A stretch of DNA of 54,796 bases, filler included, from Sluysia triapertura (Eukaryota): the NCBI GenBank assembly GCA_046118255.1. It is 4 parts of 4 records of this genome, joined end to end, with 100 filler letters (N's around TTAATTAATTAA, not from the genome) between each part and the next. Parts side by side here need not be neighbours in the genome. Positions count along the whole stretch, not along the records: positions 1 to 17,818 come from JBJNIA010184723.1; positions 17,919 to 28,879 come from JBJNIA010190818.1; 2 more parts are not named here. One strand, written 5' to 3'. The notes beneath the pieces are model-generated. The model was not told the origin of the DNA. It was given only the letters and a program-made list of their open reading frames with translations, and did not search any database. Below are positions 9,501 through 35,199 of the stretch, in pieces (the stretch's first letter is position 1; the number at the start of each line of letters is the position of its first letter). The position numbers were made by a program, and so were the translations under genes.

Positions 9501-10827
9501 AAGTGGGTTAAATGAAATGAGTTAAAAATCAAAATTAGAAACATCTGGAAGCTTTTCTAATTTGTGAATCGAATCATCCTTTGTGGTGAGAAATGGATCT
9601 ATACGTTCAGCAAAGTTGCTGGACAAGAGTGAATCACTGAGACACCCCACAAAGCAATGATGAGTGTTTGGTTGATTCATCAATAACAGACCAAGTGGAA
9701 ACAATGTAACAAGCTGAAGATGACGTAAAGGTGGAAATGGAAAAAGCACTTAGCCCTTTTTCGGTCCTATTTTATTTCCATTGAATCCACTACAGGTCCT
9801 ATTTAATTCCAACGAAAAAACAAAATTTTCACAATTAAATGAAATTATTTTCATACATTATTTTGACTAAGCACAAGTCTTGCGATTATTTTGCAGATTT
9901 AAATTAATGAAGTTCATTTTTATACATGATCATTATTTAAGAGTTAAGAAAACTTTAAGTGATGAAAGCTTTTGACCTTTGTTATATTATTGGACTTGAT
10001 GTGTAATCAGAACGGCCATGGTACACTAATCAACAGATTTGAGTTGTTGAAATCCGATTTTTATTTAATTTTACTTACTATTTATTGTTAGTAGAACAAA
10101 TTCTGATAAATTTAGTTTTCTAAATAGCAGATGCGAAATAATATTTTCAGAAATTATTTAATAATTTTTGAACAAAAAATCTAATTTAAAGTTGGGTTTG
10201 TCCGTGTTCATTGTCATTAATTTTTGCATTAAATGCTAATTATTATGCTAATTTTTAATTATAGTTAATTTAATGATGATAATAATTTCAGAGTTTCTCC
10301 CACGGCAGTGAAACCAGGCTATGTAAGTTAATTAAATGAATAACGCCCATTTTAATTGTGATTTTACTAAATAGAATTATTTAATAATGATCTTGCTTCA
10401 GGTTCCTACGGTCCAGAAGAGGACTATAAAACTACAAGCAGTTATCAATAATAGCAATAACAGGCCAGGCCAGCGATATAAGGAGGCTGAAGTTCGTAAT
10501 TTACATATTCTTAATAGTAAATTCATAATTGAGTTTGTCTTGCTGTTTTTCTCGTAAATCAGAAGCACTGTCCGTCCTTGATTCAAGGGTAATTCTTCGG
10601 AACAGCCATGTAGAGAGATTCTTTGAAGAACAAATCATGAAATATTAAAATATTAAAATCACAAATGATAAATTCATCCACTTAATTAATTAATTTATTT
10701 ATTAACTTATTATGCAAATTTAAAAAAAGTTTAATCTCCGCAACTCAATTATTTGTTGATTTTCTACAGTGACATGGTACTGCGCAAGATTAATCTGGAA
10801 CTCAACCAAGTGATCATCACTCACTGA
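584..10827 (+). CDS. FERM-domain protein, Yurt/EPB41L5/EPB41L4B-like (5' exons outside window)
   Basis: GT-AG exons with consistent phases: 584-766, 800-926, 3624-3717, 3759-3920, 4470-5096; less certain tail exons 8251-8393, 10292-10322, 10402-10491, 10563-10588, 10770-10827. Peptides GPPFALQFRVKFFSSDP..TRYLFVLQLK, ELGDY..SEFRF, YGVDKH, LGLTPSG..KIGLFPW, LWKSCVEHHAFFRL..FRLKSRF..RTEYQ match the EPB41L5 FERM and FERM-adjacent region. AATAAA near 10860. Confidence 0.9.
8789..9088 (-). mobile_element. Non-LTR reverse transcriptase fragment (intronic)
   Basis: GVPQGSILGPLLFIICIND followed by NADD (degenerate YADD). Confidence 0.85.
9240..9730 (+). mobile_element. Degenerate mariner transposase fragment
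   Basis: VMKHEFLLGTTTSQTARNINRV, DFTNEPRGRPESKVSDDELKE and KLDKWV motifs in shifting frames; boundaries approximate. Confidence 0.7.
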
Positions 10828-13548
10828 ATTATCTCCCAACAATTTGTCTAGATGTTCGAAATAAATACAAAATGATAAGAAATGATAATTGAAATGTGGC
10901 CCAATATTTGAATTTTATTTATTTACAATTCTGAAATGAAATGTCACTTTGTAAATAGTTTATTCGTATTTTCCAACTATGAGAACCGCACCAGATAATG
11001 AATTACGCTACTAAATAGGTGAAGCAAGTACCGGGATGCTGCTTGATAGATCTTCAGAAAATAGACTGAGTCGCTTTGTTTCGAAGTGACTGACAATTTA
11101 TTGAGGGTCGCAATAGAACAAGAGTTGTATTTGCTGTGTTGCGATACTTGAAAGGCACTTGAATATGTGCCCTGTAACTATGCTCCATTTTATAATTTAT
11201 GAAATATAATTTATGATATTTTTTGCTACTAATGTTAGTCAGTAAATTAATATTATCATTTTATTTAGGTTATTCAAGTATAAATAATCATCGTCTTCTC
11301 TTTCTCTAATTGATAAATTGTCTGAGTTAAGAGGTTCGTTCATTCTTTCATGTTGGCGCGAAGCGTGTCTCCGCATAGCACGCTCTCACATTACATTATT
11401 CCTCTTAATTTCTATTCAAATCGAATGAGATAAAGAATAATAATGTATTGTGGTTTGTTACTTGAAAAATGTCATTGATCGATTTGTTTTATTTCCATTA
11501 TTCTTTTTCAGATCCAGTTGGAAGAGGCGCCCTTGAAACAGTATTCAATTTGATATATACACTACCATATCTGTTTTTACTGTATTCTTTCATAATTTTA
11601 TTTTTGTTTTATCAATCAGTATTAATTTTATTTTATCTATTTCTTTTATTTTTATTTTTATTTATTTATCGAACTAATTTGTGCCTATTTAAACTGTTAC
11701 GATTATTCATTATTGATTCGATATGGAAATCACGACACATCGCACGTATCTGGACAAGTTCATTTGTGAAAAATGAGTGGCTACAAATTATTATTATTAT
11801 TATTATTTCAAGCTGTTCCTTGTTCCAGGACAACAGTCAGCATCTTTCTAATGTTATGTTAATTGTCAATAGAAATTAATTTTTCTTTTACAATTTGATG
11901 TAATAATAAAGGACTTCATTTGTTATTTTGTGTGTGTGAAATGTGTTTGCTCAGAAACCAGTGCCTTGTTTGATTTTTAAGTTTGCGTGACAAAATGATG
12001 CCGGAAGAGCATTTTGAACTGCGTCTTTATGCAACAGTTTTAAACTTGATATAGAAATCGAATATTACGGAAGATATTCGATACTAAACTAACTCGAGTC
12101 GATATGCATGTATATGTATAACGTCATTAACTCATAGCTTGCCGCTAGAAATTCTTGATCGAATGTTTGATGACAACACAAAGTTATTCTTTCACAAAAC
12201 GTACTACTACGTCAGCAGCTACTGAATTTCGAATAAAAAATGACGTATTACTACGTCAACAGTGAGCACCGAGTTAATATAGTGTGTATCGCGTGTAGTT
12301 CAGTTCGTAGTACGAGATTGCATTTTGTTGAATCAGCTGAATCGTATTTATTATATTAATATTTGAATTCGGTTTGGATATTTTACATATTCAATATTAT
12401 ATATAATATAGACATGAGTGGACACTTCTGCGAAGGTTTGATTGTGCTTTCAAGATTGCTTTCTAAATATAGATATTCGAAAATTCGGTGCGATCTGTTT
12501 CAGATCAAAGACACGACCTAATATAATACAGTATCCTACTGCATCGTAAGATATAGGGAGATTCACCAGCTCAATCTATTTATCGACTTTGCATACATGT
12601 ACAGGTAGTCGAACATGCTGTCTATTCATGCATCTGTGAACATGAAACGATTTGGTGCCATGGTGATAACGAATCACAAGTCGAACAGATTTCGTGGAGG
12701 GATGACAGAAACTGCTGTAATTAAATCTATAGTGTGAGGCGCTACAATAATAATTAAATATTATTGCAACAAATAATTTGATTAAATAAAATATATTTAG
12801 AACACAAGCAGAATACACTCTACACGATGGCTAATGCACAATTCATTACAATAGACAATTGATGTAATCGATAGCTCGAGGTCTATATCGAATTTTTAAT
12901 ACTCTATTGATTACTCTACTTCATTTACATGAGTGGTTGAAGTGGTGTAGAGGGAGTGTGTATCAGATGATCTAGATGAGTTTGTTGTGTAGATACTACT
13001 ATTACTACTACGACTAAGAGTAGGTGTTCAGAGTGCAGAAAAAAGTAAGAGAGAGAGAGAGAGACAGGAGTAGTTGTAGTGTTTGTGTTATTTATAAATT
13101 GTCGGGTCGAGTAAACATTCTGATTTATCTACAGATTTGGTATTACATAAAATTATTTACAAACGACGATTTTCAAAACTGATACATTTTAAAAACATTA
13201 CGTGAAGGGTCGAGTAAAGTTATTTTGATTATTTTTATTAAAATAAAATTTTATAGTTGGTACTTACAAAATAGTAGGCAGTCGATGGAACCATAACAAT
13301 GTTTCATTGTTTGATTCATTATCCACTCTTATTACACCTTATTCTGGGGCCCACTAATTTATAAATATTCGCAGCCTTGCGTCAGGAGTCGTTGCAAATT
13401 AGATAGATGCATTTAAAATGGGCGGCCAATCAACATTCAAGTCAACATATATTTACCAATCGTATTTTACATCACACAAGCACATATTGCCTTTGCATAC
13501 TTTTATGTAAAAAAAACGAAATAAGTTCAGCAAACGAGCCACTGTTCG

Positions 13549-13800
13549 TCAGTACACATTCCGCTTCATATCCGCCCGTTTGCCCCATGGCATGTCGTGC
13601 CAAGCAGCTCGTTTGAGCATGCGTATCCATGGATAACTCTCAGGAAATGGTCGTCTCAACATAGCATCATTGTACATACCTTCATCCAAGTGGCCCTGAG
13701 ACGCCTGATCGAGAGAAGCTGCCGCTAACAGTCCAATCATGAATAGCGAACCCATCAATAAAAGAACTTGAGCTCTCATAAATGACAAGCACAAATGCAT
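13549..13800 (-). CDS. npp-5: Neuropeptide precursor, flatworm PWamide (npp-5) family; mature AAWHDMPW-amide
   Basis: Hydrophobic N-terminal signal peptide; KR-AAWHDMPW-G-KR gives dibasic cleavage sites and an amidation Gly; resembles flatworm AAYMDLPWamide / WxDMPWamide peptides. Splice acceptor just upstream of the ATG. Confidence 0.85.
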   Translation of the reverse strand: MHLCLSFMRAQVLLLMGSLFMIGLLAAASLDQASQGHLDEGMYNDAMLRRPFPESYPWIRMLKRAAWHDMPWGKRADMKRNVY

Positions 13801-13965
13801 TATAATTCTGTAATCGAAATTCTGATGAAAACAACCATAGCTTATTATATTTATATAGATTAACGAACATGCTTACTAAAAAATTACAGGATATTGAAAT
13901 AGTCGATTTTTATTGGTTTAATTTATCATACTTGCACATGATTGGTTAATGATTGAATTGTCTCA

Positions 13966-13967
<2 letters not shown>

Positions 13968-14023
<56 letters not shown>
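13968..14023. repeat. (ATT)n microsatellite
   Basis: About 18 perfect units. Confidence 0.95.
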
Positions 14024-15655
14024 TTACGATGCACATAAAATCACTCTGGCTTCTGTAGTGGTACAGAAACGGAGGAAACATAACTCTGAAAAGGAAATAA
14101 TAAAATTTTATTTGAAAACAAATTTTTAGAGCTTGTTTCATACAAAATGAGAATGAATATTCCACCTTGAAATAGTTGCAACAGTTCTCTTTATTGTACA
14201 TATGTTGTTTGAATGAAACATAACAAGAAATAGATTTTCGATTTGTAGGGACGGCAACTGGGGTTTCTGTTGAATTTCGAACAGATAACACATTTGTAAA
14301 CATTATAATTTAAAGGTATAAAAGATTCCAGGACATTCGCATCTACTTAGTAAGAGTTAGTAAGTCAAGTTCGAAACTGGTGGAAATAGTGAGCGCGCTA
14401 TTCAAAAATGAGAATGCATCATTTGTAGTTGTGTAATAATTTTGAATAAGATTTATTTTAGGTTGATGAAACTTCAAAATTAGTTTATAAATGTCAATAA
14501 TTAACAATCAATAATCAATAATTATTATTCTATCACAAATCATATCTTTTCTAAAATTAAAATAATATGAAATAATGTTTACTTATCATTGGGAGTTGTC
14601 GACAATTTTAAATACCTCAGTATTTGTTTATTACTAAATATTATTATTAATTATTATTATTACTATTATTATTAACACTAAAATTATGATAGGGTTTTTA
14701 ATTGTATTCTCAAAAAAATTTATTAATACTTCACAAATATTGACCGATAGGTAATAATGGGACAATTTATTTACAATAATAATAATTATTATTATACGAT
14801 GAATCATATTATCAAAATATAAATAATGCTACAATAAGAAAATACTGATACATCTATCTTCAGTTATTGCGATGTTAATACTAATTGTACTCGACTCTAA
14901 TACTAATCGAATTTTACAAACACTAATCCTATCAGAAATTCTTCCTTATACATGCTGCAATTACTTCAAATTCATTGCCAAATAATTTTCTCTTAATTAA
15001 TAGTAATAAATTCGACTTTGCTCAATATTGATGTGGCTTTTCTGACACTTAACCTATGAAAAAATGTTTTGAGCAAAGTGGGCATTTCTGTAACTTGATA
15101 AGTTAATAAATACTTTAACTTTAATCTTAAAATTCGGATCTAACTAATCAATTAATGCTTAATGCTTACGTAATATATTTATTAAAATCTAAAATAAAAA
15201 CTAATAAATTAACAAATTTATATTGAAACACGATGCTGATAATAATTAACACGGAATTATTAAAAAAATATTGCAAGGGCAAAGCAGATTAGAAGTTAAG
15301 TAGCAGTAAAAATATTAAAATTCAAACCATCCAGGGTATTTAATTTGTATTTTTGATAATTTTGCGTAGATGTAAGCCTCAATATATCGTGAAACTTACT
15401 AAATATATACTTAAAATGGAAATATTTACATGGTTTGGGAAGTGTTGAAATAATTTATTAATTTAATATTACAAACTATTTCAATGATTATTAAAGAATT
15501 AAAATTTATAACTTTAGAATCATGATTTATTATTATAAGAAAATCAAATTGAAATAAATTGTGGTTGAATTTTTTCAAAAATAAATTCATTAAATCAACT
15601 ACAAAACAAAAATTTAACGTTAATAATCTTATGATGTGTAAAGTTTATCAATGTA

Positions 15656-17073
15656 TTAATTGATCCGTCTATATTTCGAACGATTGCTCGATAATTGAAA
15701 TGAATCATTCTGAATAATAGATAAAAATTATAATTGCATGACCAGTTATTGTTAAAATCAAAATTTACTTTAATTAAAGAGTCTTTCGCTATAACGGCGG
15801 GAGCAACTCTGTCATGTTCGTTGGGTTGATCCTCGATGTCTGAAGGGTTGGAGTTCATTTGACTAGTTCCAATAGATGTCAAAAACCACTGAGCCGCTCG
15901 GTATGGTCACGTAGAATATCCTGGTTGAGAGAACCGGTGCACATCTCAGCAACGTTGTGAAAGAATTGACACGAAGCATCATATAGATTGCACATTGCTA
16001 TCCTATTACGTCTTCTATTGAAACCATTTTTATGTATTACTAAATTTGTGATTAATGGCACACTCATGGGTTGAACTTACTGGTCTGTAGCACGAGATTC
16101 ACCGTGTTCCTTGAATTAGTTTCGACATAACTTATCATCTTTTGATTGATCGTAGTTGTTACTAAAACTATCGTGATTGGGAATTCGACACAGAAATGTA
16201 TTTCTAATTGATCTAATATAACCATCACATGTATGTGTTCCGTAATGTTTATCGGATGAATGATCGGTGCAATCTCGACGTGAAACGTCCACTAAGATTC
16301 CATTTGAATTAATAGCCTTAAATTCGACATCATTGACTTCATTGTTAGTTAAATCTGCCGCTGCATGAACATCAAAATCGCTTTCACAATAAAGTTGGAT
16401 GTGACGTGGTAATTCAGTATGCGGTTCATGCTCAGGAGCATCTTGTAATTTAACCGTCTGAAAATTAACATATTGACAGTTTTGTGATACAATTACATAA
16501 GGATCAACAGTTGGCGTATCGTTAGTTTTTCCACTTTTATTTTACATGTTGTATCGGCCCGTTGCATTTCCGTGGTGAGATCAAATAATTAAAACCTGGT
16601 TTCACTGGAAGATTTGACAATTTCTACACTGTAGTGTTATCTTACTAGCTTTAATTCTAGGTTCGGATGCTGATATAACAATTCCACTAACTTTGACTAA
16701 TTTGGATATTTCATCTGATCGAACATTGCGCAAACTTCTTGATGTTGCATTCCACTGTAAGATTACTTGAAAAGTTGGTAAATTCATTGACAACAGATTG
16801 CATTAAGGAAACTATCAAATCTGGTTTTTGAATAAGCTCATTTGCAATGATATGATCGAATTCAGTTGTATGGTCTTATCAATTTCCAAGTAATAGTACT
16901 TATTATGAAAATTGTGAACTAAGTTTTCTCGATACGAATTAAAAGATAACATTTAACTGATTTAAGAAATTGGACAAATTTAGATTTGTTTATAATATTT
17001 TGAGATAGATTATCCAAATCATTAATGCGATCATTAATACTTTAAGCTGTAATGCTTCATCATAATCTGCCAT
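15656..17073 (-). pseudogene. Chimeric gene relic: MCM5 N-terminal domain (no AAA+ domain) fused to an unrelated C-terminus
   Basis: ATG at 17073. Across frameshifts: YRENLVHNF..YYLEID, EFDHIIANELIQKP, FQVILQWNATSRSLRNVRSDEISKLVKVSGIVISASEPRIKASKITLQCRNC, PRKCN, DPYVIVSQNCQYVNFQTVKLQDAPEHEPHTELPRHIQLYC, all colinear with MCM5 residues 1 to ~250. Similarity stops at ~16386. Putative 59-nt terminal intron 15768-15710. Confidence 0.85.
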
Positions 17074-17179
17074 TGTTCTTTTTACATCAAACGATTTATA
17101 AAATTTTTTAAACTTTTTAAAATTTTGTTTTATTTTATTATTTATTTTACATCTATTGTTGTACTTTACAACTTGGAGA

Positions 17180-17695
17180 GAATGTAGCCTTGAGATTGGT
17201 TGGCCAATGAAAGAAAGACGATTATCGTGTTTGTAAAATGCTGCAACCGTGTGACAGTTAATGTACCCTTATAATTCAAATGACTGTCACCGTTGATAGT
17301 ATAAGTAATAAAATAATAATAAATAATAACAATTAAATTATATAAAAATACATAAAAGACTTTGTTTTCTTTTTCTTTGCATAAAATTCTTTCAAATCAT
17401 ATTATCTTTGGAGAAAAATTCATGCAGTGCGACTAAAACATAACATCGTAGTTAAAAGGATAGAAAAAGGAATGATGAATGAATATTTGACTAAGATAAA
17501 GACGTAATTAAAGATGTCACAGAAATTCCATTTGAGTGTAATGTTTAAAAAATGATTTTAAAATGTGAATTTAATGTTTTTCACTGATGTTAATGATTGA
17601 ATGCTGAACAATTTTGAACTTAAAATGTTTTAAATAAAAAGTGAAATGTACATTTAATGGTTTTGATTGTAAGTATAATTTTAATGTGTGAGGTT
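17180..17695 (-). promoter_or_regulatory. Shared upstream module, copy A
   Basis: Reverse complement aligns with 25262-25980 (e.g. acattaaaattatac, aaaaccatta(a)atgtacattt, gaaaaacattaaattcacatttt). Ends in two hairpin-like motifs and CCAAT boxes. A regulatory role is inferred from position only. Confidence 0.6.
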
Positions 17696-17818
17696 GTGAT
17701 GGGTGATTTATGTTTGGAGGGCGTATATTTGTTATATAAACTTAAATTTAAGACTAGTTTGACAAGTTTATTTTTATCTAAGAATTTAGTAAAAGTCTTT
17801 TCATAATTATTTGGATGG

Positions 17819-17918
17819 NNNNNNNNNNNNNNNNNNNNNNNNNNNNNNNNNNNNNNNNNNNNTTAATTAATTAANNNNNNNNNNNNNNNNNNNNNNNNNN
17901 NNNNNNNNNNNNNNNNNN
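17819..17918. other. Assembly spacer N44-TTAATTAATTAA-N44
   Basis: Exactly 100 nt; the 12-mer has stops in all six frames; identical spacers at 28880 and 43665. Confidence 0.95.
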
Positions 17919-18039
17919 ACGTAAACGGTGGGTAAAAATTCTGGGGGGTAAAATTACCCCCCCCCAGGTTGACTAAAACGTCACAATTACATTCGATTGA
18001 CGGACAAAGGTTAAACAATGTTCCAAATACCACTCGCAT

Positions 18040-18620
18040 CATTAAGAGCACGGACTAATCTTGGAATATAACTTTTCCAATGACGTCATTGCAAAATGCG
18101 GTGAACAGGTGATTTTGAAAAACCAAACTCACTGGAAGCCTGTCATAGAGACTTCCTTGGACTTTGCCGAAAACTTTCAAGTACTCTTTCTTCTTGTGTG
18201 GAGCGATTGGTATTCCTGAACGCTGTTTGTGAACATTTTGAACAGTTCCATCGGTTTCAAACTTATCTCGCGTCGGAATTTCAAAATCATCTTTACCTTC
18301 GCGATGTTAGGTCCTGTCCTTCCTTGACGAACACTTGTCAAACAAGTGGATTGGACGAATGGGGTTTTAGTGAATATCCTCCCCGTTCACCAGACTTCAC
18401 ACCACATAACTAGATTTTTTCTTATGGAGATACCTAAAAGACAAGTATATGCCAATAAACCTGCAACAGTGGCTTAATTGAGGGACATGAATGTGGCCAA
18501 ATACCGAAGGAATTGTTTCATGATGTGTGCGATTCCATTGCTTGGCTTTGTGAGCAGTGTCTGGGTCAAAATGGACGTCAGTTTGAGAACAAGCAAGTGA
18601 CATAATCAATAAATGATATT
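18040..18620 (+). mobile_element. Degenerate Tc1/mariner transposase fragment (WPPRSPDL..DFFLWGYLK class)
   Basis: YPPRSPDFTP..LDFFLWRYLKDK..YANKPATV across frameshifts. Confidence 0.75.
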
Positions 18621-20865
18621 TGTAAATACTTTTACAATTTTAAATCAATAAACTTCTGATGTCATGTTTACAATTATTTTTGATGTATATTTTTTGGGGA
18701 AAATCTGTATATTGTATTACGTTCTGTAAATAATTAATGAATTATCGATTTTATTAAGCTATAAATTGTTTTAAATTGTTCTGTAAAGCAAAGTAAAATA
18801 AATTAATGTAATACATACCACCTTGCTCCCTAATTGTGTTTGAAGATGACGTCATCAGCGGATGATTCTGCGGACCTTACATTAATCTGAAATGTGTCTT
18901 TATATTATGTGGTTTAGGAATAATATGAATGTCATTACTGCGGCTTGGATGATAATTTATCCAAGATTATATACGTATCATGAATCCTCATTCAGTTAGA
19001 CATAAAGTGAAGAAAACTATTAAATTATTAGATTCTCAAATAAAGTATTATATTGGTTTATTGAGCTTTTAGATAGCGCACAATTGATGGTATTCCATCT
19101 GTATAATATTGAATAATTTTTGAGCTTCACAGTCTAAACTTTGTTTACATACATTTACTTAAACTGTTGACAACAATCAGTAAGTAAAAATATAAAATAA
19201 ATAATTTCAGTTTTAGATTCTAGAAATATATATAAAACAACGTTTTAATAATTAATTAATAATTATTTTATTAGAAAGCATTTTAAGGTTAAATTAATTT
19301 TATTATTGATTTCCACACATTCAAAATCGATATACTAAACACTCAATCCTGACATTTATAATTGATATAAGTAGCATATTAAACAGAACACCATTGTTCT
19401 GAATAAGAAAGTTTATCCAAAATATATTACTATGAAAACCAAAACATTCTAAGATAATAAATGTAATGTCATGAATGTTACTATCAAAAAGGGGAAAAAT
19501 AGGACTGTGGTAACAGATTACAATATACAGAAAATATATAAAATAAAACCTATAATAGATACTAAAAATAGAACACACAAAGAAGTTTTATACAATAAAG
19601 GATAATTATTCTAACACGATTAGAAATACACTGTAACTGGACTTATGTTAAAAAGAAGTTTAAAACATTTTAAATTATCATTGTGTGTAGTGTTGACTCA
19701 GAAAATTATCTTTAACTTGAAAAGAAATGACGACAAAAATATTTCTATTAGTAAAAATGGACCATATTGAACACAGTGTTTACTAGTGTGTATTAATGTA
19801 GTCTCTCAATCACCAAATTAAAATATAACATTCTACTTAACAGCTAAGAATATTGTTTGTATGAATATTAATGTCATGAACAATTCAGATTTTTAGATTG
19901 GCAAAGTGAGACAACTCTGAAGGAGGGGGAAGTATCAACAAAAATTTTCATAGAGAATAAAAATAATATCGTAATATTTTTTTATTTTTAACACAAGACT
20001 TACCTTAATTTTCTATGGTAAGTAGCAAAGTTGTAATATTTATTTGTTTAATTAGCTTGCCAGCAAGCAGTACGAACACGAAGTGTATCATCTGAGAGAC
20101 AAATAATACAATGTAGCCCGTAGGATTTTCATAAATATAAAATTTAACTTAATTCTAATAGTCGGGACTTTTGAAAAACGTCACGAGACGCGGGACAAAT
20201 TGCGAAAAAGCAAAACGTCTGGTCACTTTAAACATGATATTATGATAAGCAAATTACGGTTAGAGCCGTCATGAGTTTCCGGAAAATATGTGATAATATT
20301 TTAGTTTTTAGACATACAAGTGATGTTTATTTGCTTCAGGCAGCAGCATCAAATAATTTTAAAAAAGGATGATGAAAAAAAGTATATGTCAACATGTTAA
20401 TAATTATCACAAATTTGTAGTAAAAGAATGTTTAGTTGAATAATTAGATCAAACGAAAAATGTGATTCAACATTGTTTCATCTATTTGAAGAACGACTTC
20501 CGGCCCCACTCAATTTGAATTTCTTTAAAGACTATTTTTTAAATTATTTTATTTATAGAACTGAAAGAATGATCACTTACTATTTGATATCTTTGTTACC
20601 TATCCAGGATTATTTATCCATTGATCTGACAAATTTTACCAAATTTTTATTGATAATATTTAAAAAAACACAAAACAGAGTCTTTAATGTTTAATTTTAT
20701 ATTATTATTTAATTTTTATTTAAAATTTGCGATTTTCTGTTAATAGAAATAAAAATCTCCGGAGGATTTTGAATAACTCAAACATATAGCAATAAATAAT
20801 AATACTTTCGATTATAATATAATTCGAAAGAAAACAAAAGTTTGTTCAACTTTATTTTGCTTCAG

Positions 20866-21944
20866 ATGAATCTTCGTCTCTTTTAGTACCCCAGTCAGAC
20901 AAAGATAGTCGTCTAAAACGTAATAATCACTGTTCATTTGCTGTTTGTCTTACTGCTCTTCAAACTGCTGTTATGGCAACTCTTTTAATCGTACTAATAG
21001 TACTTGTCATAATAATAATGTTAGTAATATATCGAAAACATCAACATCAAAATCATCATCACCATCACCATCAACAGCATCAACATCAACAACAACCATC
21101 CTCATCAACACTTTCCTATCGACAAGACTCAAATCCACAATCGAGTCGTCAAGCAACATTATCAAATACATATTCAAATTTACCATTATCTGCCGATATA
21201 AGTGCTCCATCGAATATGACTCTTCCTCTTCCATCATACACAAATAAATTGGATCTCTTTTCATTTCAACCATTCTCGACGAATTTAGATTCGATATCTG
21301 ACGATAAAAAGATCGTCTATCCTTTAGTAAGTCAAAATACTTTATCACAAATACAAGCTTTACAATCTTTACCACAAAGTACAATACCAAATTCTACTTT
21401 TCCGATACGACACAGGTTTCTAATATTTTATTATTTTAATTTTTCATTTAGATGTTTAACAGAAAATGAAGAAGTTATTTACAATAACAGTTCTAATCCT
21501 ATTATTATAACTCAACAAACACCACCTATAACAACGTTATCGACCTCATCAATAATCAACCGTAGTAATAATACTAATACATTATCATGTCCAAGGCATC
21601 CTTACCAACAATTTCCACATCAACGTTTTCATACTCAAACACTACACCAAACACCACCACCACCACCACATCAACACCATCACCAACATCATCACAATCA
21701 TCATCATTATTCGCAACATCGAGACATTCAATTAGTTAATGATTTTGATTCGTCAGACAATCAACCAATCAGAATTATTGATCAACCACAAAAAAATATT
21801 ACACAAACGCCCACGCAACCTTACATAAGAATAATTGAAGATTCCAGTAGTTCAAATAATGCTGTATCACAAAATTTAGTCATAACAACACAACAACAGA
21901 CACATACAAACATATCTCAAACATCAGCATCAAGTATTTTGTAA
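20866..21944 (+). CDS. 3' exons of a single-pass membrane protein with a His/Gln/Ser/Thr-rich cytoplasmic tail
   Basis: Acceptor ttcag at 20865; TM segment LLIVLIVLVIIIMLVIY followed by RK; 36-nt GT-AG intron 21416-21451; stop at 21944. Upstream exons unresolved and family not recognisable. Confidence 0.7.
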
Positions 21945-22626
21945 ATTAATAAAAATCAAACGAAATATTAATATTTTCATTGAAAAGAAACTATATTATC
22001 TATTATTATCAATTATTATTATTATTATTAATATTATTACGATAACTATTACTATTATTATTATTATTGTTATATTTTATATGCAGGTTGTGTATAAAAA
22101 AATTAAAATACTAAATTTAATTAAATGAATTATTTATATGCTGTGATATTGTCTTCTTCAGTTCATCCTCAAGTGAAAGTTCTTTTGAACTTTTTTAAAT
22201 CTCACATTGTTTTCACTCAGAATTTTTTTTCGCTTTTATTTATGCACCTATTTTGTTACCATGGTTACTTTGCTCTTTAAACTACAGTTTTCTGTAAATC
22301 CATTTTTAAAATTATAAAAAACATAAATATGCTGAAAATAAAATATTTTTAGGTTTATGATTTATGATTACCTTGTCTTTGATCCAATAAATGAATGTAT
22401 ATATATATATCTAAAATATAATTGGCGGATATTTTCAATAATCCAATGACTTTCAAAGATGTGTCTATTCATGTTTATTTAATTAAAAATAATTAATTTT
22501 TCTTAGTTTTTAAATATTAATTATAATTCATTTTGATTTGTTAATTTTTAAATATTTTCAGAATCTTCACCTGAAGTATCATAATTTCGAATAAATTTAT
22601 AAACTAATTTAAGTATTGCTCACTAA

Positions 22627-22819
22627 NNNNNNNNNNNNNNNNNNNNNNNNNNNNNNNNNNNNNNNNNNNNNNNNNNNNNNNNNNNNNNNNNNNNNNNNNN
22701 NNNNNNNNNNNNNNNNNNNNNNNNNNNNNNNNNNNNNNNNNNNNNNNNNNNNNNNNNNNNNNNNNNNNNNNNNNNNNNNNNNNNNNNNNNNNNNNNNNNN
22801 NNNNNNNNNNNNNNNNNNN
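22627..22819. other. Sized scaffold gap (193 N)
   Basis: Plain N run without a linker. Confidence 0.95.
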
Positions 22820-24527
22820 TACCTTTTTCTTATTCTCTTATTTTTCTTTTAAATTTCAACTAGTACAAATTATACAAATGACAAATAAGAAAAAGAATGT
22901 TGGAACACATGAATCACCGTTGAAAGGAATTTCTATTAAAATTTCTTTTATGAAGAAAAATACATTTTTGTGATTGTTTTCAATTTAATAATTCGATAAG
23001 TGACACACTATTTCCCGTTAATCAAGAAATATTAATAATATTAATACACTGTAGTATTGTAAACATTGTCACATGTTTTATTCAGGTTTTACTCGGAATA
23101 ATTTTCCCGAAATTAAATAGGTATATAAATTACCACTAGCTAGTATTAGTCACATGCTATAAAAATTGAACCTGAGCGAGTAAATATGCATAAGAAACAA
23201 ACTAAACAAAATTGTTTGACGGGCTGATTGCTCAGTGATCAGAGCATCGAACTGCGCATTTTATGATAAAATAATAAACTCAAGTTTGTATGTGAATTGC
23301 ATAGAAAATTGCAGCAAATTGTTTACTAAAATTAATTAAATATGAAAATTTCTTCTATTATAATCATAATAAAAATGTTTAAAATATTATATAAATTTAT
23401 TTTTCTTTGAAAAAATATATTCATATTTATCATTAAACTAATTAAATTAAGCTTGATATTGACATTTAAGAGCTAATTATAGATTCAGTATAAACTAATA
23501 TTATTACATTTTTAGTATATAAATCTAATTTAATTTTTTTGTTAAATATCAAGTTTAACGTTTTGACATTTACAATATGACGCAGTACGATAAATGATGT
23601 TAACCAATAGAAAGGTTTTAAAATTTCCTTTAAATTTAGATAGTAAAATCCCAATATAATATAATCGTAAAATGTGGATAGGTTTAGGAAATACATATTT
23701 AAATAAAATAAATTGTTTCTGCATAAACTATTTATTAATAAATTAATAAATGATTTTAACATATGGAATTTTTAAAACAAATTTAGAGTGAAATAATTTT
23801 CACATTGATTTTGGTTATTTTTAAATAATGATATTTATCATGTGATAAAATTATTATATTCAAACTTCTCAATTGAAATGATCTAAAAAAAACCCGAAGA
23901 TTATAAAAATATAGAAATGAAAATAAATGCTTACAAGTATAATACTAATAATTTTGATTCTTAAAATAAATAAATATAATGCAAATACATTTTTAAAAAT
24001 ACATTTTCGTAGTTGTCTCCAATAAATTATTAATAAAATTGATTAAATCTGATTAGTTAATCAGTTATGCATAACGTGGTGTATGAGTTAGTGATAAAAT
24101 GGATAAATATTTTTAATTCCACATGGAACTTAAAAAACAAAAGAATTCTTGTGATTCATCGGCAATACGTTTTTAAACTTATTTTATGTAATTAGTTATT
24201 ACGTCTTTTAAAAACAAAAAAATATGTTTGATCATTTTAAGTAACAAAAATTACCGACTACAATGTTAAATTTGAGATAAAAGCAAAACAGCAGTTGCTA
24301 CCAGTGCAATCTTTTTTATACACACTTTACAACTCAAAATATTGTTTAAATACTTAGAAAATTCACCAAATATTGTTTTCTAACTTACTTTGTTTTTAGT
24401 TTCATTATATATCGGTATTATTATATTATTTTAAGATGATAAAGTTATAACATTTTAAATTAATAATATAATGAAATATTATTTTACGTAAAATATCGAG
24501 GAGATAATTGAAATATATACATATATA

Positions 24528-25158
24528 TAACCAAACCGCAAACTTAAATAAAAATTAGATATCAAATACGACAAATGCAATTTCTTCTTTATATTATTAT
24601 CTTCGCTACTATTCATTTCCTTCTGCGAATAATAGTCTTTAGAATGACTTTTGTTGTGTGATCTTATTGATTTTTGTTCAGCGAGCGTTTCTGGATCCGC
24701 ATTCTTAAAAATGCAGTGAAGGACTTTAGATTTAAACGAACGTATCTTCGTTATTATGACTTACTGTGCAAGGACTAGTTATAAGCATGTCGAAGAAAGA
24801 TGGGAGCAAACTTCAGAATACCTGTACCGTGTACGTCGACAATGTTCAATCTTGTATCGAAATTGTAAGTTACTGGAAATATCTCAAAATCTCCTAAAAA
24901 GGTCGTCCGACAACATTTCGTTCATCTGAAAACAGGGATATAGTGACAGCTGCATTTGCTCATTCTTCCAAAAAATCTATCCGTCAGGTATCTTGCATGA
25001 CTTTGGTCTAAAACCATGCCCTAAATGAGGATGACCCAGATAAACGATTCAGAATTTTGTGAGAACTTTGTACTATTTTGTGAAGAATCACAAATTTTTC
25101 CAGATTTCAGAGGAAACTTGCCACAAAGATATTGTGCTTGTATTGAAGTTCAATGTGG
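24528..25158 (+). mobile_element. Left part of an internally deleted Tc1/mariner element (family of the MITE at 38074)
   Basis: aaccaaaccgcaaacttaaataaaaattagatatcaaa matches the TIR at 38091; transposase N-terminal relic (ERIFVIMTYC, GRP, KKSIRQVS) and C-terminal CIEVQ. Confidence 0.8.
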
Positions 25159-25261
25159 TGACCAACCTTTTCATTTAAAATTCAAAATCATTATTTCATT
25201 TGTAATATCACATTTATTAACATTTTACTTTTTACCTTTTCACACTTTAAAACATTGTAAA

Positions 25262-25980
25262 TTCACAATCTTATAACATTAAAATTATACTCATATTGAA
25301 AACCATTAATGTACATTTTAAATTATATCCAAAACATTCCAGGTTCATAATCCTTCAACACTCAATCTTTAATATAACCGAAAAACATTAAATTCACATT
25401 TTGAAACCATTTTAAACATTGCAATTAAATTGGCATTTCTATAACATGTTTATTTATGTATTATTTTCTTAAAACATTCTTTTATCAGCTCTTTCCACAT
25501 TTCATATCTCTGTAATCACCGAATAAGTTTATTTCAAAGAAATTATGAATTAAAACTAATATTGCAAAAAGCAGTTAACGAAAGAAGTTTATTCAAACGA
25601 ATTTAAGCTAAATCGAAATCCATCATTGTTATGTAAAGAACTTTAAAATAATGAAGATAAAAAAGAATTTTATTTTAAAGAAAAGAAATTCAAGAAGTTT
25701 ATGTTTAAAAGAATTTATTTACAATAAAAGATTTGTATGTTAAGAAATAAGGAAATAAATTAAAAGAATACAGTTTATGTATTTCATTTTCATTTTATTT
25801 ATTCAATTTATAATAATAATAATTATTATTATTATTAACATTAATTTGTTAATTGTATTTTTAGTCTGTCCCAGTCGATAGTTTAATTAAAATCAACTCA
25901 ACCTACCTTGTTAACTGCCAACAGATGGCAGTTGCCTAGTGTGTAAATAATTTTATTTATAAATTAATATGATTGGTAGA
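25262..25980 (+). promoter_or_regulatory. Shared upstream module, copy B
   Basis: Homologous to the reverse complement of 17180-17695. Contains an AAAGAANTTT array (25581-25717), a perfect hairpin aactgcca-acaga-tggcagtt (25913-25933) and ATTGG at ~25972. Confidence 0.6.
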
Positions 25981-26154
25981 TATGCTACAGTTATAACACA
26001 ATATACATTACACACATATGTGTATTTTTATTACTAGTCCTACTATCGCTACTCCTACTAAGTAAAAAAGCAATAACATAAGAAGTTATTTTAAGAAGCA
26101 ATTCACATAGTACATTATAAAATCATTTATAATTACTTTCATAGTTCCAAATAA

Positions 26155-27721
26155 ATGTCTTCTGTGGATAAAATCATTTTACAAAAAACATGAACGAAAA
26201 TATGTCGATGCTTCTAGTTCTACTTCTATTTCTAGCAATCCATTTGTTTCATCAAGAATGGTAATTGTGCCTGATGTGGAAGATCACTCATTTACTCATG
26301 AATACACTGAGTACGATATTGAAATAGTTGTTAAAGGAAATTATGATTCAAAACGCTTGACAAAATTAGTAAACTCCAGTAGTGACAAGATGTATTCATT
26401 TAACAATATCTACATGATTGAAAACGATAATAACAATTACGATCAATGCGATGATAAAGACAAGCCTGATTTTTCACTTGAACTCGAAAGTGATTTTTTT
26501 TAGATAAATTAATTAACTGTCAAGGACTTCATGAAAGTAAATATGAAAATATCATACCTATTATTGGTTCTGAAATTAACAAGCAGATTCATTTAGTGAA
26601 AAATATAGAGTCGTATCATTATGAAGCTGGATGTAAACACACAGAAGAACGTAATGTTCTTAATGATGAATTTCTACTCCATCTCTCACGTGACAAACTA
26701 ATATTTAATTTAGTAAAAAAAATGAAAACAGATTCCTGTATTACAGTGACTTGAAATATATATTTCCTACTATCCTAGATGTCGTTGAATTTCATAGCAA
26801 ACAGCAGCATATTTTGTCATCAAAGTCAGATGTAGAAATATATCATCAAACTGATAAGAATTGTATCGTTATTGCTACTAAGTAAGCTACCTGAATCTAA
26901 ATACCGAAAAACAATTACATCAGACCGATTTCATAGAAGTTGCAATGAAATAATTATGAAAGGCTCACATGTATTGCCAAGTCCCTTATGTAGTATGAAC
27001 AAAATTTTAAATGACCTAATTCTTAATGATGATAAAGCATTTTTTAAACCTGTCAAAACAAGTATTAAATTCTTAGTTAAAAAATTCTTGAATTCAAAAA
27101 ATCGATCTTACACTATTCCTACTTATCATTTACAATTGACCGATTCTAAAGATGTATCCGAACGAGATACACCGTTGTGCATCATATAATGAAATTGTAT
27201 GCTTAGAAAACTTTCCCGAATTAGTAACAATATACTATATATGTGATCTAATATCTCAAATAGACCATGATAAAGCTGTTATTAATCGTGCTGTGTCATT
27301 TTTATCATCTAAGCCCATATGGCATATGATTTTACGTAAACAATTAATATTTAAATCAATACAGATTATATCGCCTACAACATTAAAGGAAAAACATATC
27401 GAGTTGATGTTATCATTGTTGAATAATGCTATATGTTTTCAAGCATACGTTAAAGATCAATTTCATTTTATATCTGGTAGTAACGTTATTTTATCCAACC
27501 AAAAATGTATGGGACAATGCCCACCAGAGTTAGATGCATTTGGATTATGCATAAACTTTGACACATGCTGCCAGTATTACCACGACATCTACCAAATGAA
27601 CTGCAGTAAACGAGAAATAGACGAACGCAAACAAAGAGTATACAATCTATTAACGTCATTACGTTCCAGAACAGTGGTTTCCAGCATTGTTTCCAGTACA
27701 AAAACACTAACTCTTATCTAG
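26155..27721 (+). pseudogene. Orphan ~520-codon gene broken by about five frameshifts
   Basis: ORFs 26258, 26872 and 27152 plus the intervening open frames (LDKLINCQGLHESKYENIIPIIGSE.., YYSDLKYIFPTILDVVEFH..) tile continuously from ATG 26155. Cys-rich C-terminus CMGQCPPELDAFGLCINFDTCC. No family recognised. Confidence 0.7.
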
Positions 27722-28023
27722 TTAGTAGTTGTAATTTCCTTCATCCTTATCATTTATATTTCAGGACTCTACAACCGAACAGATCCAGCACGTATCAAAA
27801 GTAACTCAAAATTTTTGATAATATGTGTTATAGAATTTAGTTGTTTTAGATTTAATAATAAAAGTTTATGTTTTGACTTAAATAATGTCTTAAATGATAA
27901 AGTTTAAAAAGTAAATTTATTAAATTCATTTCTTAATAAATCAATAAACTTTCCTAATTTAACATATTGTAATGTGATATTAACTAATAACTTTACAAAT
28001 ATAATTTCAAAACATTTAACTCC

Positions 28024-28120
28024 AAATTCAAAGTGGACATTTTTAAATACTAATTATACCTCTTAATTTCGTCGTTTTTGATATATAATTTTTATTTGTG
28101 TTTATTTTTGGGACAGTCAG
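28024..28120 (+). mobile_element. Right end and TIR of the Tc1/mariner element that begins at 24528
   Basis: ttcaaagtggacattttt..aaatactaattatacc..gtcgtttttgatatataatttttattt..ttttgggaca is colinear with 38422-38535. Confidence 0.8.
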
Positions 28121-28879
28121 CCATTTAAGGCGAAGAATATAGCAGATGCAATAGACAGTTTAATGTTATTTTATATTAGTCAAATAATTATTAATTAATT
28201 TTACGTAGCATTAATATATAAAACTTTACACAAATATATATAAACTAAGAGCATCACAATTAAAATATAATCAAGTTTGAACGAAACAGTAACTAAATTT
28301 AATTCTTCAAAAAAATCGAATCTAATGCAAGGCATTCCACACAATGTCGTTAGAAATAAAATATTCAATTGTAATTGGTTCACTTTATCAATTATTTATT
28401 TGTTGTTGGAAAATTAGAAGTGAAATTTCTCGTAAGTAGAAATTTTCTAATTACACTTGTCCCATTAAACTATTATCGATAAACTGTATGCAATCAATAC
28501 ACACCTAAATCCTTTGACTTTACTTATCTGAAAACTAAATGTCAAACACACACACAATCTAATATTCTAATTATAATTGATGTGACTAATTAATTTCACA
28601 TTATACATTTCTTTCTATTAATTTAATCTACAAGTTGAAATAATGTAAATGTCATACGGTGTAAATTATATATATAAATTATATACACCTTTTTGATAAT
28701 TCATAAGATTAAAGGAATTATTACATGGCAATTTTAACATGAAATGAATAATAATTATTGTAAAAAATAATATTTTAATTAAATTTTTTTAATTATGTGA
28801 TATTTGTATAAAAAATAAAGCAATAAAAGAATTAATAATAATAATAATAATAAATACTATTTGAAATTTAAATAAAAAG

Positions 28880-28979
28880 NNNNNNNNNNNNNNNNNNNNN
28901 NNNNNNNNNNNNNNNNNNNNNNNTTAATTAATTAANNNNNNNNNNNNNNNNNNNNNNNNNNNNNNNNNNNNNNNNNNNN
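28880..28979. other. Assembly spacer N44-TTAATTAATTAA-N44
   Basis: Identical to the other two spacers. Confidence 0.95.
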
Positions 28980-29094
28980 CACCAATATCCATTTTTCTTG
29001 ATACATGATATACTAGGTAGTATCTAAAATCCCCAGTGTAATTTGCTTCTTTAACTATAACAAAATTAAGACAAAATTTAATATTTTGTTACCT

Positions 29095-29210
29095 TCTTTA
29101 ACTTCTTCTTTAACTTGGATTTTTGCTTTTAACTTTTCAATAGTATCACTTAATCTAACTTCAAAAGTTTTATAAACTAATATCTTGAGAGAAGTCAAAG
29201 TTTGCATGTA
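29095..29210 (-). pseudogene. Ubiquitin-like fragment
   Basis: KTFEVRLSDTIEKLKAKIQVKEE resembles ubiquitin [24 protein letters not shown]; no LRGG end visible. Confidence 0.6.
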
Positions 29211-30314
29211 ACCATTAACGGTAAATTGATTCCTATTCAAATGTCTTGGTTTCATCGAAGTTAATTAAAACTTTTTAAAAATTATTGATTGATAAATATT
29301 TATATTTTATTAATAAATTTATCTTAAAGAATAATAATATACACGAGCAGTAAATCAACATTTATAAACTACTGAGTAAAAATTTGTAGACAGCATTGTG
29401 ATAAAATAAAACGATATAAATAAATAAATTGCGATGATTATGTGTGGACTGAAAATGTTAAAACTGTACAAATGGAAGAATAAAAATTAAATTAAATATT
29501 AATCAGTAATAATCAACACAATTTTGACACCATTTATAAAATAAAATCGCTCTATGGGGTTATTTGGCTTTATAAATAGAATTCAATTCAAAACAACTTC
29601 ATCTAATCGCTTTTATTTAAACTGTTTTTTAAATAGTTATAGAAAGTTAATTTTCTAAACCAGCGTTTCTCAAATGCATTTTAAACAATAAGGTTCCTTG
29701 TGGGATTTGTTTGTTAAGACAACATATCACCAATTATAATTTATCAATTATAGAAAATTTCAAATATACTAAATATATTAACTACACATCTATTATATAA
29801 TATCGCAAGTTATATTCAATATGATTAAGTGAACATACTACTAAAAGTTAATGAAAATTAAAAAAAAGTTGTATATATTTAATCTGAATAATGATGATAA
29901 TAAAGATAAAGGACAAGAAAAGAAGAACAATTAACGATAATGATAACAATAGTTTATTTACAATATTTACATATATAAAGTCAGAGATATTTATAATAAA
30001 AATTTGTAAAAATTATTGTTAAAGTTATTATAGAAGTTATTACGAAAGCTATTATTTGTCGAATGTTTTGTAAGGATAAAATCTACAACTTTAATTCGAA
30101 TTTTAGAAAGATATTAATCGTAATAATAATAATAGTTCATGATGGTTAAATGAGATGATAACGTTTATTTTTTGAATGAGTTTAATAGTTCGTTTAGTAA
30201 TTTGTGTATGTGTGTATCGTTTTTAAGTGATAGATTGTGTTGAATTTTATGAGATGACTTATAGTGAATGTTGTGTGATGAATTGTGATTGATACCGAAT
30301 GACGAGTTCCCTAC

Positions 30315-30315
<1 letters not shown>

Positions 30316-30353
<38 letters not shown>
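30316..30353. repeat. (AAT)n microsatellite
   Basis: About 12 perfect units. Confidence 0.9.
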
Positions 30354-31945
30354 GTTTTAATTTCCAAATTACATTGCCTTCTAAGTTACAAATTGTTAAT
30401 AAAAATGTATTATGATAAATTAAATTAATAATACAGCCGTTATGAAACTTTATAAGTTTAGAAGAAGATGGTCAAACAGATAAATATTGTAAACATTTAA
30501 TTGTTATGTTATTATGAGTTGTAAGAATTTGAATGCGCTTGAATGAACTCTTAGTCTTTGGTAATAGTCTAAACTTTAATATTGTTGTCACTTTATATTA
30601 CTAATTAAATTTATCTGAAAGTACAATCTTTTATTAATGTAAATTTACTCTATTAACATATTCTGCAAGTAATATTTGGATATGCTCAAACGAACTTTAT
30701 ATGTATCAGGTAATAGCTCGCTCTATCTTGTAGTTAACTTTTTATATACTTTAAACTCTGAGCAATGTAAATCAAAAGATTCAAAGGCTAAATCTTTATT
30801 GATATAAACTTCTATATCAATAAACTCTGTATCAATATATTGATTCTAATTTATCTGAAGATGTGATCTATTATCATTGTAAACTTCTTCTACTGATATC
30901 GGTATTCTATATTTTATATTTATCTTATCTGGATTCGAATACTTGTATAATATCTTAATTTCTTCATATTACTCTGTTTTTAGAAAATATTGCGTTTTAA
31001 CCGATTCGTTTCAAACAAACATCATATATATACATTAATTAATATAAATAAATAATTATTATTACAGTAAATATATGATTCATTCATCTAAGGTTTTGAG
31101 CGCCCCGGGCAAAATAAAATTTGGCGCCCTTTCATACAATAACATACAAATTTACTGCGAGTTAAAAAAATAGTAAACAAAGGCAAAAAAATCAAACTTA
31201 CACAATAAAGAAGTGTGTAAAAAATTTATTTATTTAAAAAATAATACAATAGTTATTTACTTACAAGCATTACAACACATATGGAATAACATAACGAGCG
31301 CGTTTGAAGTTTGAGCGAGAACTTTGAAAAGTAAGTTATGCTATTCCTATGTGACATACAATATTTTTTGTAATGCTATTTGTCAAAAATTCAATAACAT
31401 AGTTAATTAAATTAATTTTTTTGAAAATCAGTTTGTAAACAGTTTACAATATGAAAATAATTAGCGTTGTGACCTTTATTTGGTATTATTAAAGAAAAAA
31501 AATTATTGCTTTCTAAAAAATCGATGTCTCATGAAAAATGATCGATTTTAATTTATAAAACCTAAAAGTATAATGAATGTAAAAAAATATTTTATTTTTA
31601 TATCGGCGCCCGGCTTGTTCGCCCATTTATTCGACGTTGGATTCACATAGTCCAGTTTTAGATTTATTTTTCTCGGCAATTTGGATTGTCCAATATCTGT
31701 ATTACGATTTGATATATTTCGATACCATATTTTTCATGATGGATTGATGGTATTGTTCGTTAAGTTGATCCACAAAATCTGATATTTGTATCAGTAAATA
31801 AAGAAATAATCGAACCTGGAATGTAACGGTAGCCTGTATTGCACAAAAACGAATATATTTGGCTAATGTAAAGTCAAAATTTCATGCCTAATATGCTTTA
31901 ATAAGTATTTATTTATACTCTTTTACTAAAAAATTAACTTTTAAT

Positions 31946-32292
31946 TTGATGGGAGACCAAGTTGGTGTTATTCATTCCGAAATTTTGCCAAGAAACTTAT
32001 CAATCAATGCCGAACTTTATTGTGAACAACTCAAACGAGGAAACACTGTAATCAAAAAGAAGAGGACCAATAAGAAGCAGATAATTTTAATGTTTTGCCT
32101 CATGTCGCCACATGCGAAAGTTGGCTATTGAAGACTTAACTCCATGTCGAACCATCTTTCTGATCTCACATTTGAAAACGAAGAAGCAATAACAACGTGG
32201 ATTGAAGAATTTTTCGACCAAAAATCACCAAGCTTCTTCAAACGTTGGATTGACAAACTGCCAGAAATGTGGAAGGAAGGCGGAAAATATTA
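31946..32292 (+). mobile_element. Mariner transposase C-terminal fragment
   Basis: GVIHSEILPRNLSINAELYCEQLKR; FENEEAITTWIEEFFDQKSPSFFKRWIDKLPEMW..GGKY. Confidence 0.85.
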
Positions 32293-32599
32293 CTGTTTCA
32301 ACCAATGACACTTGAAGGATATTCTCATTAGTCAACCATGTAAGACTAGATTTTTTAGTGCCAATATGCACTCTTGATTCACTTTTGTTAATATTTGATC
32401 TTTCATTTCGAGAGTAAGTTTACAACCTCGGTTATACTATTGAAATTACTGCTTGAATCTTTGTATCTTTTTATCGGAGAATGTTTAGTTACATTAATAG
32501 ATGTTATTATGGAATAAGTCGGTTGATTTTAATTTAAATTCTTTATTACATAATTTATTTAATAAGTGATTGCAAAGATTACTTAATTGATTGAAAAAC

Positions 32600-33058
32600 C
32601 CTATGTATTCATGCGGTTTTATTTGTTGCAAAGAAAACACACCAACTTCTTGTTTTAACTTATTTGAGTCATATTCATTCCGCTGAATTATCTATTTAAA
32701 TCATTTTAGACTAACTTTCACTTTCATTAAAATGGAATGTCAGGTAGATACAAATGAACATTTCCGGCATCTCTACTCTTTTTCTATTTTAATCAACATT
32801 TAAACGCTGCAGAAGCCACAAGAATGATTTGTTGCGTTTGTGGAGAAACTGCATGAAAGTGGTTTTCGAAATTTTGATTTAAACAATGAACTTCGGTCAG
32901 GTCGACCTAATGACCGATTCAGGATGATCCGCGTCAATCGACAGGAGCACATCGATTGTGGTCACACCACTGTTTCTCGACATCTCAAGAAAATAGGAAA
33001 AGTTCAAAGGCTTCGATCACAATTGTAAAAAATCGCACGAACATATGCACCAACCCAA
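32600..33058 (+). mobile_element. Internally deleted mariner element
   Basis: MECQVDTNEHFRHL.., FDLNNELRSGRP, TTVSRHLKKIGKVQR; right TIR aaaatcgcacgaacatatgcaccaacccaa followed by TA; same family as 34727-35120. Confidence 0.8.
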
Positions 33059-34419: not shown

Positions 34420-34726
34420 GGAAAAGTGAAGAAATTACAATTAATAATTAATCAAGCATCAAGACTAATTCTCCAAGCTTGAAGAAGATCTTATATAACA
34501 CCTTATCTTATTACATTTGTCAATAAAAACAAGAATAGAATATATTTTAGAAATATTAAAAAATTTGAAAACCAAGATGAATATTTCATTGAGACAATAA
34601 TAATAATAATCTATGCAGAATCCACAGTAATAATAAGCTAGATGATAGGTTACCAGAGAATGTAAAATTACTGGAAGATTATGAAATATTTAAGAAAAAG
34701 GCAATGTTCTTTCTGTTAAAGAAATA
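34420..34726 (+). mobile_element. LINE 3' fragment, interrupted by the mariner MITE and resuming at 35121
   Basis: KKLQLIINQASRLILQA; DRLPENVKLLEDYEIFKKKAMFFLLKK; matches window positions 1-150. Confidence 0.65.
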
Positions 34727-35120: not shown

Positions 35121-35199
35121 TGTTATAGTGAATGCTTGATTTTAAGCACAATATAAATTAATATATAATAATTATTATTTTATGTGCCAATTATTTCAG

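Follow-up and report, generated by a model that had tools for sequence, protein, structure and literature searches.

Two copies of a non-coding module, each lying upstream of a decayed gene, were analyzed in a 54,796-nucleotide stretch of DNA from Sluysia triapertura (GCA_046118255.1; "the window" means this whole stretch). The units containing the two copies, here called cassettes A and B, are probably gene-carrying mobile cassettes of some kind. The interpretation put forward, held at a little less than even confidence, is that they are decayed representatives of a single family of non-autonomous transposons that carry genes, most likely one similar to the Pack type of Mutator-like element (Pack-MULE), with the module as one end. 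That the moving enzyme was of Mutator type is a more tentative proposal. The coordinates of the features are collected in Table 1.

The shared module and the ends of cassette B

Homology between the two modules was confirmed. Positions 17473-17699 (minus strand) align with 25263-25487 (plus strand) at 77.7% identity over 229 nt (E 1e-41), and under looser scoring the alignment extends over about 350 bp, to 17352-17699 and 25263-25592, a result equaled by none of 300 shuffles. An earlier note on this DNA had placed the homology at 17180-17695 (minus) and 25262-25980 (plus). Its core of about 350 bp was upheld and its extension to 17180 and 25980 was not, as the parts with the hairpins show no significant alignment (equaled by 170 and 124 of 300 shuffles). 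Upstream of the core the alignment was not significant (232-285 of 300). For the stretch between the core and the hairpins 1-2 of 300 shuffles were as good, a figure that takes in the core end and TAA runs. One 10-mer, picked post hoc, is common to both hairpin parts; its three occurrences in the window are all inside the two cassettes.

Each module carries one degenerate internal duplication of 82-83 bp with 60-67% identity, at the edge of chance (shuffle maximum 65%). This is the sole internal repeat, and no iteron array was found in either module. A coding role was rejected, as indels between the copies do not occur in threes. An nhmmer profile built from the two copies detected no third copy in the window. 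The exact 23-mer common to both modules had no occurrence in viral contigs or in metagenome contigs, and Rfam gave no match at gathering threshold and one chance match otherwise. A distance of 119 bp separates module A from the edge of its assembly piece, which places the outer end of the module out of view. The two copies are on different assembly pieces separated by N spacers, as had been stated. Each is followed within 900 bp by a coding-like block in the same orientation. With 8.2% of positions and strands lying in such a place, the chance of this arrangement is about 0.7%, under a mechanical block definition and post hoc.

Cassette B interrupts an element that is called mariner-type from its ends only. 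Positions 24528-24762, 25100-25158 and 28024-28115 match consecutive parts of one element, with a 13-bp overlap on the uninterrupted reference copy at 38071-38541, which is 470 bp long, TA-flanked and bounded by 68-bp terminal inverted repeats (TIRs). No transposase was confirmed by Pfam in the interrupted element. The target duplication is 11-13 bp, of ambiguous length, and its two copies are identical at 9 of 11 or 11 of 13 positions; in an alternative register, a 12-bp duplication would give TG...CA ends. Poly(A) is absent from both ends of cassette B, and no significant terminal direct repeat was found in it (98 of 300 shuffles as good). No 3′ end matching that of B was found for cassette A, whose 5′ side runs off the assembly piece.

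Copy status was assessed with contigs of one public run (share of the region 0.69; it may be the source of the assembly), aligned to 24300-28400 at 80% likeness. This gave 5316 aligned records; individual entries covered 40 of the 708 differences, 15 of the 92 joints, 6 of the 1029 loose ends and 8 of the 5468 pieces. Among the runs listed for the region, none was of RNA. Summed depth was 34 on the left flank and 125-168 on the right flank. Most single contigs among those listed had a depth of 11-20, and the contig that bears the right junction has the depth of a single copy (10.8). All bins of cassette B (120-16,616) were deeper than the left flank. The module reached 16,616 (25259-25395) and 5,748 (25396-25532), followed by 300-630 on 25533-25943, 120 on 25944-26080, 253-981 on gene B, and 139 (27725-27861) and 304 on the 3′ part. 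At 25993, just past hairpin B and its CTAG, depth drops to 54 (4 contigs). The mariner parts showed depths in the thousands, and the ends of that family, as represented by copy 38071-38541, 48,000.

The module is thus 17-66 times deeper than gene B, so that most of its copies are not followed by gene B. Gene B is itself a repeat family, as individual sites within it differ in as many as 44 contigs and, among the pieces listed at about 90% identity, one contig covers the passage from the module into the spacer and others cover gene B. Other copies also have deletion joints, at 25235-25726, 25505-25677 and 26068-26153, that connect the module, the spacer and the beginning of the gene. The family of gene-carrying cassettes of about 3 kb suggested in the earlier note therefore has its support in copy B, which is multi-copy and whose ends are bracketed by the interrupted mariner-type element and the 11-13 bp duplication.

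Table 1. Positions and strands of the features discussed, counted along the window.
Feature	Position	Strand	Description
Module copy A	17352-17699	minus	AT-rich, C-rich and G-poor non-coding repeat; degenerate 83-bp internal duplication
Hairpin A	17251-17290	minus	8-bp arms, 24-nt loop; 26 of 200 shuffles fold as well
MCM5 N-terminal fragment	16371-17073	minus	frameshifted, no room for introns; ATG at 17073
Non-MCM tail of gene A	15700-16370	minus	continues the frame of the MCM5 piece end; cysteine motif 15995-15942; hydrophobic helix near 15767
Left part of mariner-type element	24528-25158	plus	TA-flanked, TIR-bounded; matches uninterrupted copy 38071-38541
Left copy of duplicated target	25146-25158	plus	12 of 13 identical to empty reference site
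Cassette B	25157-28023	plus	2.87 kb; GG...CC ends if the duplication is 11 bp
Module copy B	25263-25592	plus	deepest part of cassette B
Hairpin B	25913-25933	plus	8-bp arms, 5-nt loop; 1 of 200 shuffles folds as well; CTAG at 25936-25939
Gene B	26190-27790	plus	four frame pieces; multi-copy; no homologue found
Right duplicated target and right mariner-type end	28024-28115	plus	target (28024-28036) 11 of 13 identical to reference
Neuropeptide prohormone gene	13779-13552	minus	single exon; encodes AAWHDMPWG, then a dibasic site

The two genes and their leaders

Gene A runs on the minus strand from the ATG at 17073 to about 15700. Positions 16772-16383 match residues 125-251 of Xenopus MCM5 (E 4e-27) and the Pfam domain MCM_OB, which bears out the MCM5 similarity reported before. 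The first 100 codons gave no profile match and resemble MCM5 by eye only. Provided that this stretch, so judged, is the start of MCM5, there is no intron space in the 300 bp before the match. A comparison of the MCM5 piece with 88 candidates returned nothing at a cut-off of 1e-20, which was too strict. Over the 223 codons of the tail, the best frame is interrupted by 8 stops, compared with 14 and 22 in the other frames. Neither of the two genes, described earlier as largely intronless and about 1.4-1.6 kb long, is an open frame, given these stops in A and the split of B over four frame pieces. The broken frames of B are unlikely to come from sequencing error, since a 323-bp contig is identical letter for letter to 26090-26412.

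Gene B has a likely start at 26190-26202, with a signal-peptide-like stretch near 26202. Toward its C-terminus lie a cysteine-rich part (about 27500-27605), a Ser/Thr-rich linker and a hydrophobic helix near 27690-27760. The product is predicted from sequence to be a single-pass membrane protein with a signal peptide. Large-set searches covered the last piece of 193 residues only, for which no homologue was found among 437 candidates or among 1.84 billion sequences. The 193-residue and 117-residue pieces matched nothing in viral contigs, and Pfam and PHROGs gave sub-threshold matches only. A protein atlas placed hypothetical proteins of rotifers nearest to the last piece (best score 0.84), a weak lead only, and its single-sequence fold had a mean predicted local distance difference test score of 38.5.

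The statement in the earlier note that the two genes share no visible similarity is doubtful. A cysteine motif is common to the two tails, sense against sense and at a like distance from the helix. It was the top tblastx match (E 0.011) and gave a BLASTP E of 0.002 for the single pair, with 4 of 500 codon shuffles as good. In addition, both genes end in a C-terminal hydrophobic helix. Whether the tails are related is, on these resemblances, about an even call.

The hairpins between module and gene are two of five perfect GC-containing 8-bp hairpins in the window, and their arms and loops differ. They lie outside the shared region and are unlike each other, so that their assignment to the conserved module could not be maintained. 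Behind hairpin A an inverted pair of CCAAT boxes (17195-17208) lies about 125 bp before the ATG of gene A. This stretch is likely promoter-type DNA that is not homologous to hairpin B. The distance from hairpin to a same-strand ATG, given earlier as about 170-220 bp, was found to be 178 bp in A and 222 bp in B; nevertheless, the ATG in B opens just 12 codons. Neither loop holds a nanovirus-type nonanucleotide, in the form of the loop pattern searched for, and no iterons flank the loops. CTRR is absent after hairpin A. Helitrons have a 5′ TC, a 3′ hairpin with CTRR and no target duplication. A Helitron was rejected for cassette B, which has a duplication and no CTRR end; a hairpin with CTAG occurs in B only and is internal.

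Origin of the cassettes

In a Pack-MULE-like family, a transposase supplied in trans, most likely of Mutator type, would bind the module as one end of the element, and cut-and-paste movement would leave a long target duplication. Most copies of the module end would lack a gene or carry other cargo. The cargo native to the family would be gene B, and cassette A would have captured a 5′ fragment of host MCM5 as DNA, perhaps with its promoter, ahead of a related tail.

Several features of known elements are consistent with this. Pack-MULEs and non-TIR MULEs share with the cassettes a long duplication, kilobase size and an apparently captured 5′ gene fragment fused to other sequence (PMC6446971, PMC8277862), as well as ends far commoner than cargo and the lack of a transposase of their own. 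MULE duplications measure 8-11 bp, some groups have no TIRs, and Curupira and Phantom are flatworm groups (PMC6446971); composite, repeat-rich MULE ends are also on record (PMC3169594). Unlike Pack-MULEs, the cassettes have no demonstrable long TIR at both ends and a duplication of maybe 12-13 bp, and B carries as its cargo an entire gene resembling one for a membrane protein, which is repeated along with the unit, instead of a fragment of a host gene whose parent is known.

A number of results weigh against a Pack-MULE-like family. Cassette B has no significant TIR (23 of 300 shuffles as good). At the GG...CC ends a 17/31 inverted match has a background of 1.3%, and it is not significant after its choice among about 12 registers. 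On this ground the family was not classed as a MULE. The duplication, ambiguous in length, reaches up to 13 bp, beyond the MULE range, and no transposase was found among the scanned ORFs (open reading frames) of the window. A common 3′ end of A and B was not demonstrated (1, 5 and 105 of 200 shuffles as good under three scorings; 31 of 300). An RNA route is the better fit for an MCM5 piece free of introns, unless the corresponding part of the host gene is itself intronless. Summed contig depth does not equal copy number, and it covers cassette B and not cassette A. The dips at 25944-26080 (120) and 27725-27861 (139) are no higher than the right flank, so that the copies in which gene B is joined to the module may be few, and no contig among those listed spans the whole of cassette B.

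An RNA route is the basis of the first alternative, which is considered unlikely. The cassettes would be pieces or retro-copies of a giant Burro-like long terminal repeat (LTR) element or another reverse-transcribing element, with the module as leader or LTR, gene B as an accessory or env-like gene, and A formed by template switching onto MCM5 mRNA. PMC11410931 is cited alongside this proposal. Lacking introns and its 3′ end, and joined to a tail that may be related to gene B, the MCM5 piece shows the pattern of LTR-mediated retrocopies (PMC5131818), and planarian Burro elements bear accessory ORFs, RING and env-like regions (PMC6431247). The likely same host group, the accessory genes behind shared non-coding DNA and the intron-free, 3′-truncated chimera are points of likeness to Burro gypsy elements and LTR retrocopies (PMC6431247, PMC5131818). 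Moreover, a retropepsin-like motif (Pfam E 0.001, below cut-off) occurs on the last assembly piece, next to ORFs for RING and membrane proteins, and within B the depth of the coding bins exceeds that of the non-coding bins beside them, as for an element's own gene. Target-primed insertion is compatible with duplications of 12-13 bp. LTR elements make target duplications of 4-6 bp, and the duplication around B exceeds this. In further contrast to Burro, the cassettes have no LTR pair, as judged from the direct-repeat test, no poly(A) and no gag, pol or env match in their ORFs, and they are ten times smaller. No ribozyme was found in them, the module has no match on the assembly piece that bears the protease motif, and the CCAAT boxes upstream of the ATG of A would not be brought by an mRNA.

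It is also rather unlikely that the module is no more than a dispersed repeat of high copy number, two copies of which inserted independently, one near an MCM5 pseudogene and the other near a member of a separate repeated gene family. Such a repeat would resemble a miniature inverted-repeat transposable element or a Helitron and might end in B with the hairpin and CTAG, at 25939. The excess depth of the module over gene B, the drop in depth behind the hairpin and CTAG, the failure of the spacers and hairpins of A and B to align, and the repeat density of the window would all suit it. Nevertheless, a single target duplication brackets module and gene B together, joints in other contigs connect module, spacer and gene start, both co-oriented placements have the low chance given above, and hairpin A is not followed by CTRR.

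A second family in the window occurs in filled and empty form. Its leader (47643-46933) and tail (45178-44974) surround an intact, intronless RING gene of 475 codons (45344-46771, minus), and a gene-less inverted copy of leader and tail lies at 43855-44411, with 82-93% identity to the filled unit. The leader does not match the module (173 and 198 of 300 shuffles as good), and the unit, which shares no sequence with the module, indicates that gene-bearing repeat units do exist in this genome. A protein search with the 475-residue RING protein found no homologue; its atlas neighbors were RING proteins of large DNA viruses (0.90-0.92), with a low recognition score. It is improbable, but conceivable, that the cassettes represent a new class of mobile units of about 3 kb without terminal repeats, with a shared high-copy end and a swappable gene (membrane-protein, RING or captured host gene), moved by an enzyme encoded elsewhere. 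They might then be segments or satellites of a large virus-like flatworm element. No such cassette in flatworms is described in the literature surveyed, in which direct querying on this point was limited, and the family may already be catalogued in Repbase or Dfam.

The earlier note had also raised the possibility that the cassettes are integrated segments of an extrachromosomal element, organized like a multipartite virus with a common region and one variable gene on every segment. Such a virus-like origin is now very unlikely. A non-coding region shared ahead of one gene per unit is found in Nanoviridae and in PEVE/PIVE, the genes of A and B are of similar size, genes without cellular homologues would suit a virus, and planarians host the extrachromosomal, parvovirus-like PEVE and its integrated relative PIVE (PMC3198968). 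Nanoviridae segments, however, carry a common region stem-loop with iterons and a nonanucleotide (PMC10653810). In the cassettes the stem-loops lie outside the shared region, differ from each other and have neither the loop motif nor surrounding iterons. Moreover, the units measure about 3 kb compared with about 1 kb and are chromosomal and decayed. No Rep, NS1 or capsid match was obtained among the scanned window ORFs and nothing in viral contigs, no circle-closing joint occurs among the 15 of 92 contig joints listed, and depth along cassette B is very uneven.

Least probable of all is a Pack-mariner, in which the mariner-type element itself took up module and gene by gap filling: both mariner ends do enclose the cargo in the right order, as in animal Pack-TIRs with foreign DNA between two ends of a TIR element and breakpoints of a small gap with short microhomology (PMC8277862), but here the junction duplicates the target rather than deleting it, the filler itself forms a repeat family, with a multi-copy interior beside a single-depth right junction, and no mariner end was found beside cassette A.

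Multi-copy gene-carrying DNA transposons are rare in animals, with 4 cases of multicopy Pack-TIRs in 100 animal genomes (PMC8277862), and for planarian Pack-MULE-type elements the literature surveyed offered nothing beyond a review. If the transposon-family interpretation is true, a family that multiplies an orphan membrane-protein gene and can take up the beginning of a replication-licensing gene would give flatworms a new way of duplicating and shuffling genes. Both copies are dead and give no sign of function so far. Because the ends of cassette B are defined, the family can be tested directly in a full assembly.

Assembly pieces and neighboring features

The window consists of four assembly pieces (1-17818, 17919-28879, 28980-43664 and 43765-54796). 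The spacers at 17819-17918, 28880-28979 and 43665-43764 are an identical run of 100 bases, made of 44 N, a 12-base linker with stops in all frames and 44 N. As the spacers are artificial joins, neighbors across them are not linked. GC content per kilobase is 16-38%, and the window is rich in repeats.

The peptide encoded by the neuropeptide prohormone gene is close to planarian NPP-5 (SAWRDMPWa) and to schistosome NPP-5, as tabulated in PMC2953531. The genome is likely that of a free-living, planarian-type flatworm, judging from this one neuropeptide gene family and not from phylogeny.

Relics classed as Tc1/mariner type lie at 38071-38541, 17920-18700, 39490-40390 and 31900-35120. DOCK-family exons at 38750-43540 (plus) are split by transposon relics, and Pfam DOCK-C2 matched 41533-41892 (E 2e-4). 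A FERM-domain gene (566-5129, plus) has tiny introns of 33 and 41 nt alongside kilobase introns. The ORF at 20973-21944 (plus) has an N-terminal hydrophobic helix and a long, low-complexity tail rich in His and Gln, with weak Pfam matches only. At 50290-54544 (plus) the retropepsin-like motif mentioned above, which is frameshifted, is followed by intronless ORFs with signal- or membrane-like stretches. The same stretch includes a small RING ORF (53352-53660) and an orphan ORF (53927-54544), and is possibly part of a large retroelement with accessory genes.

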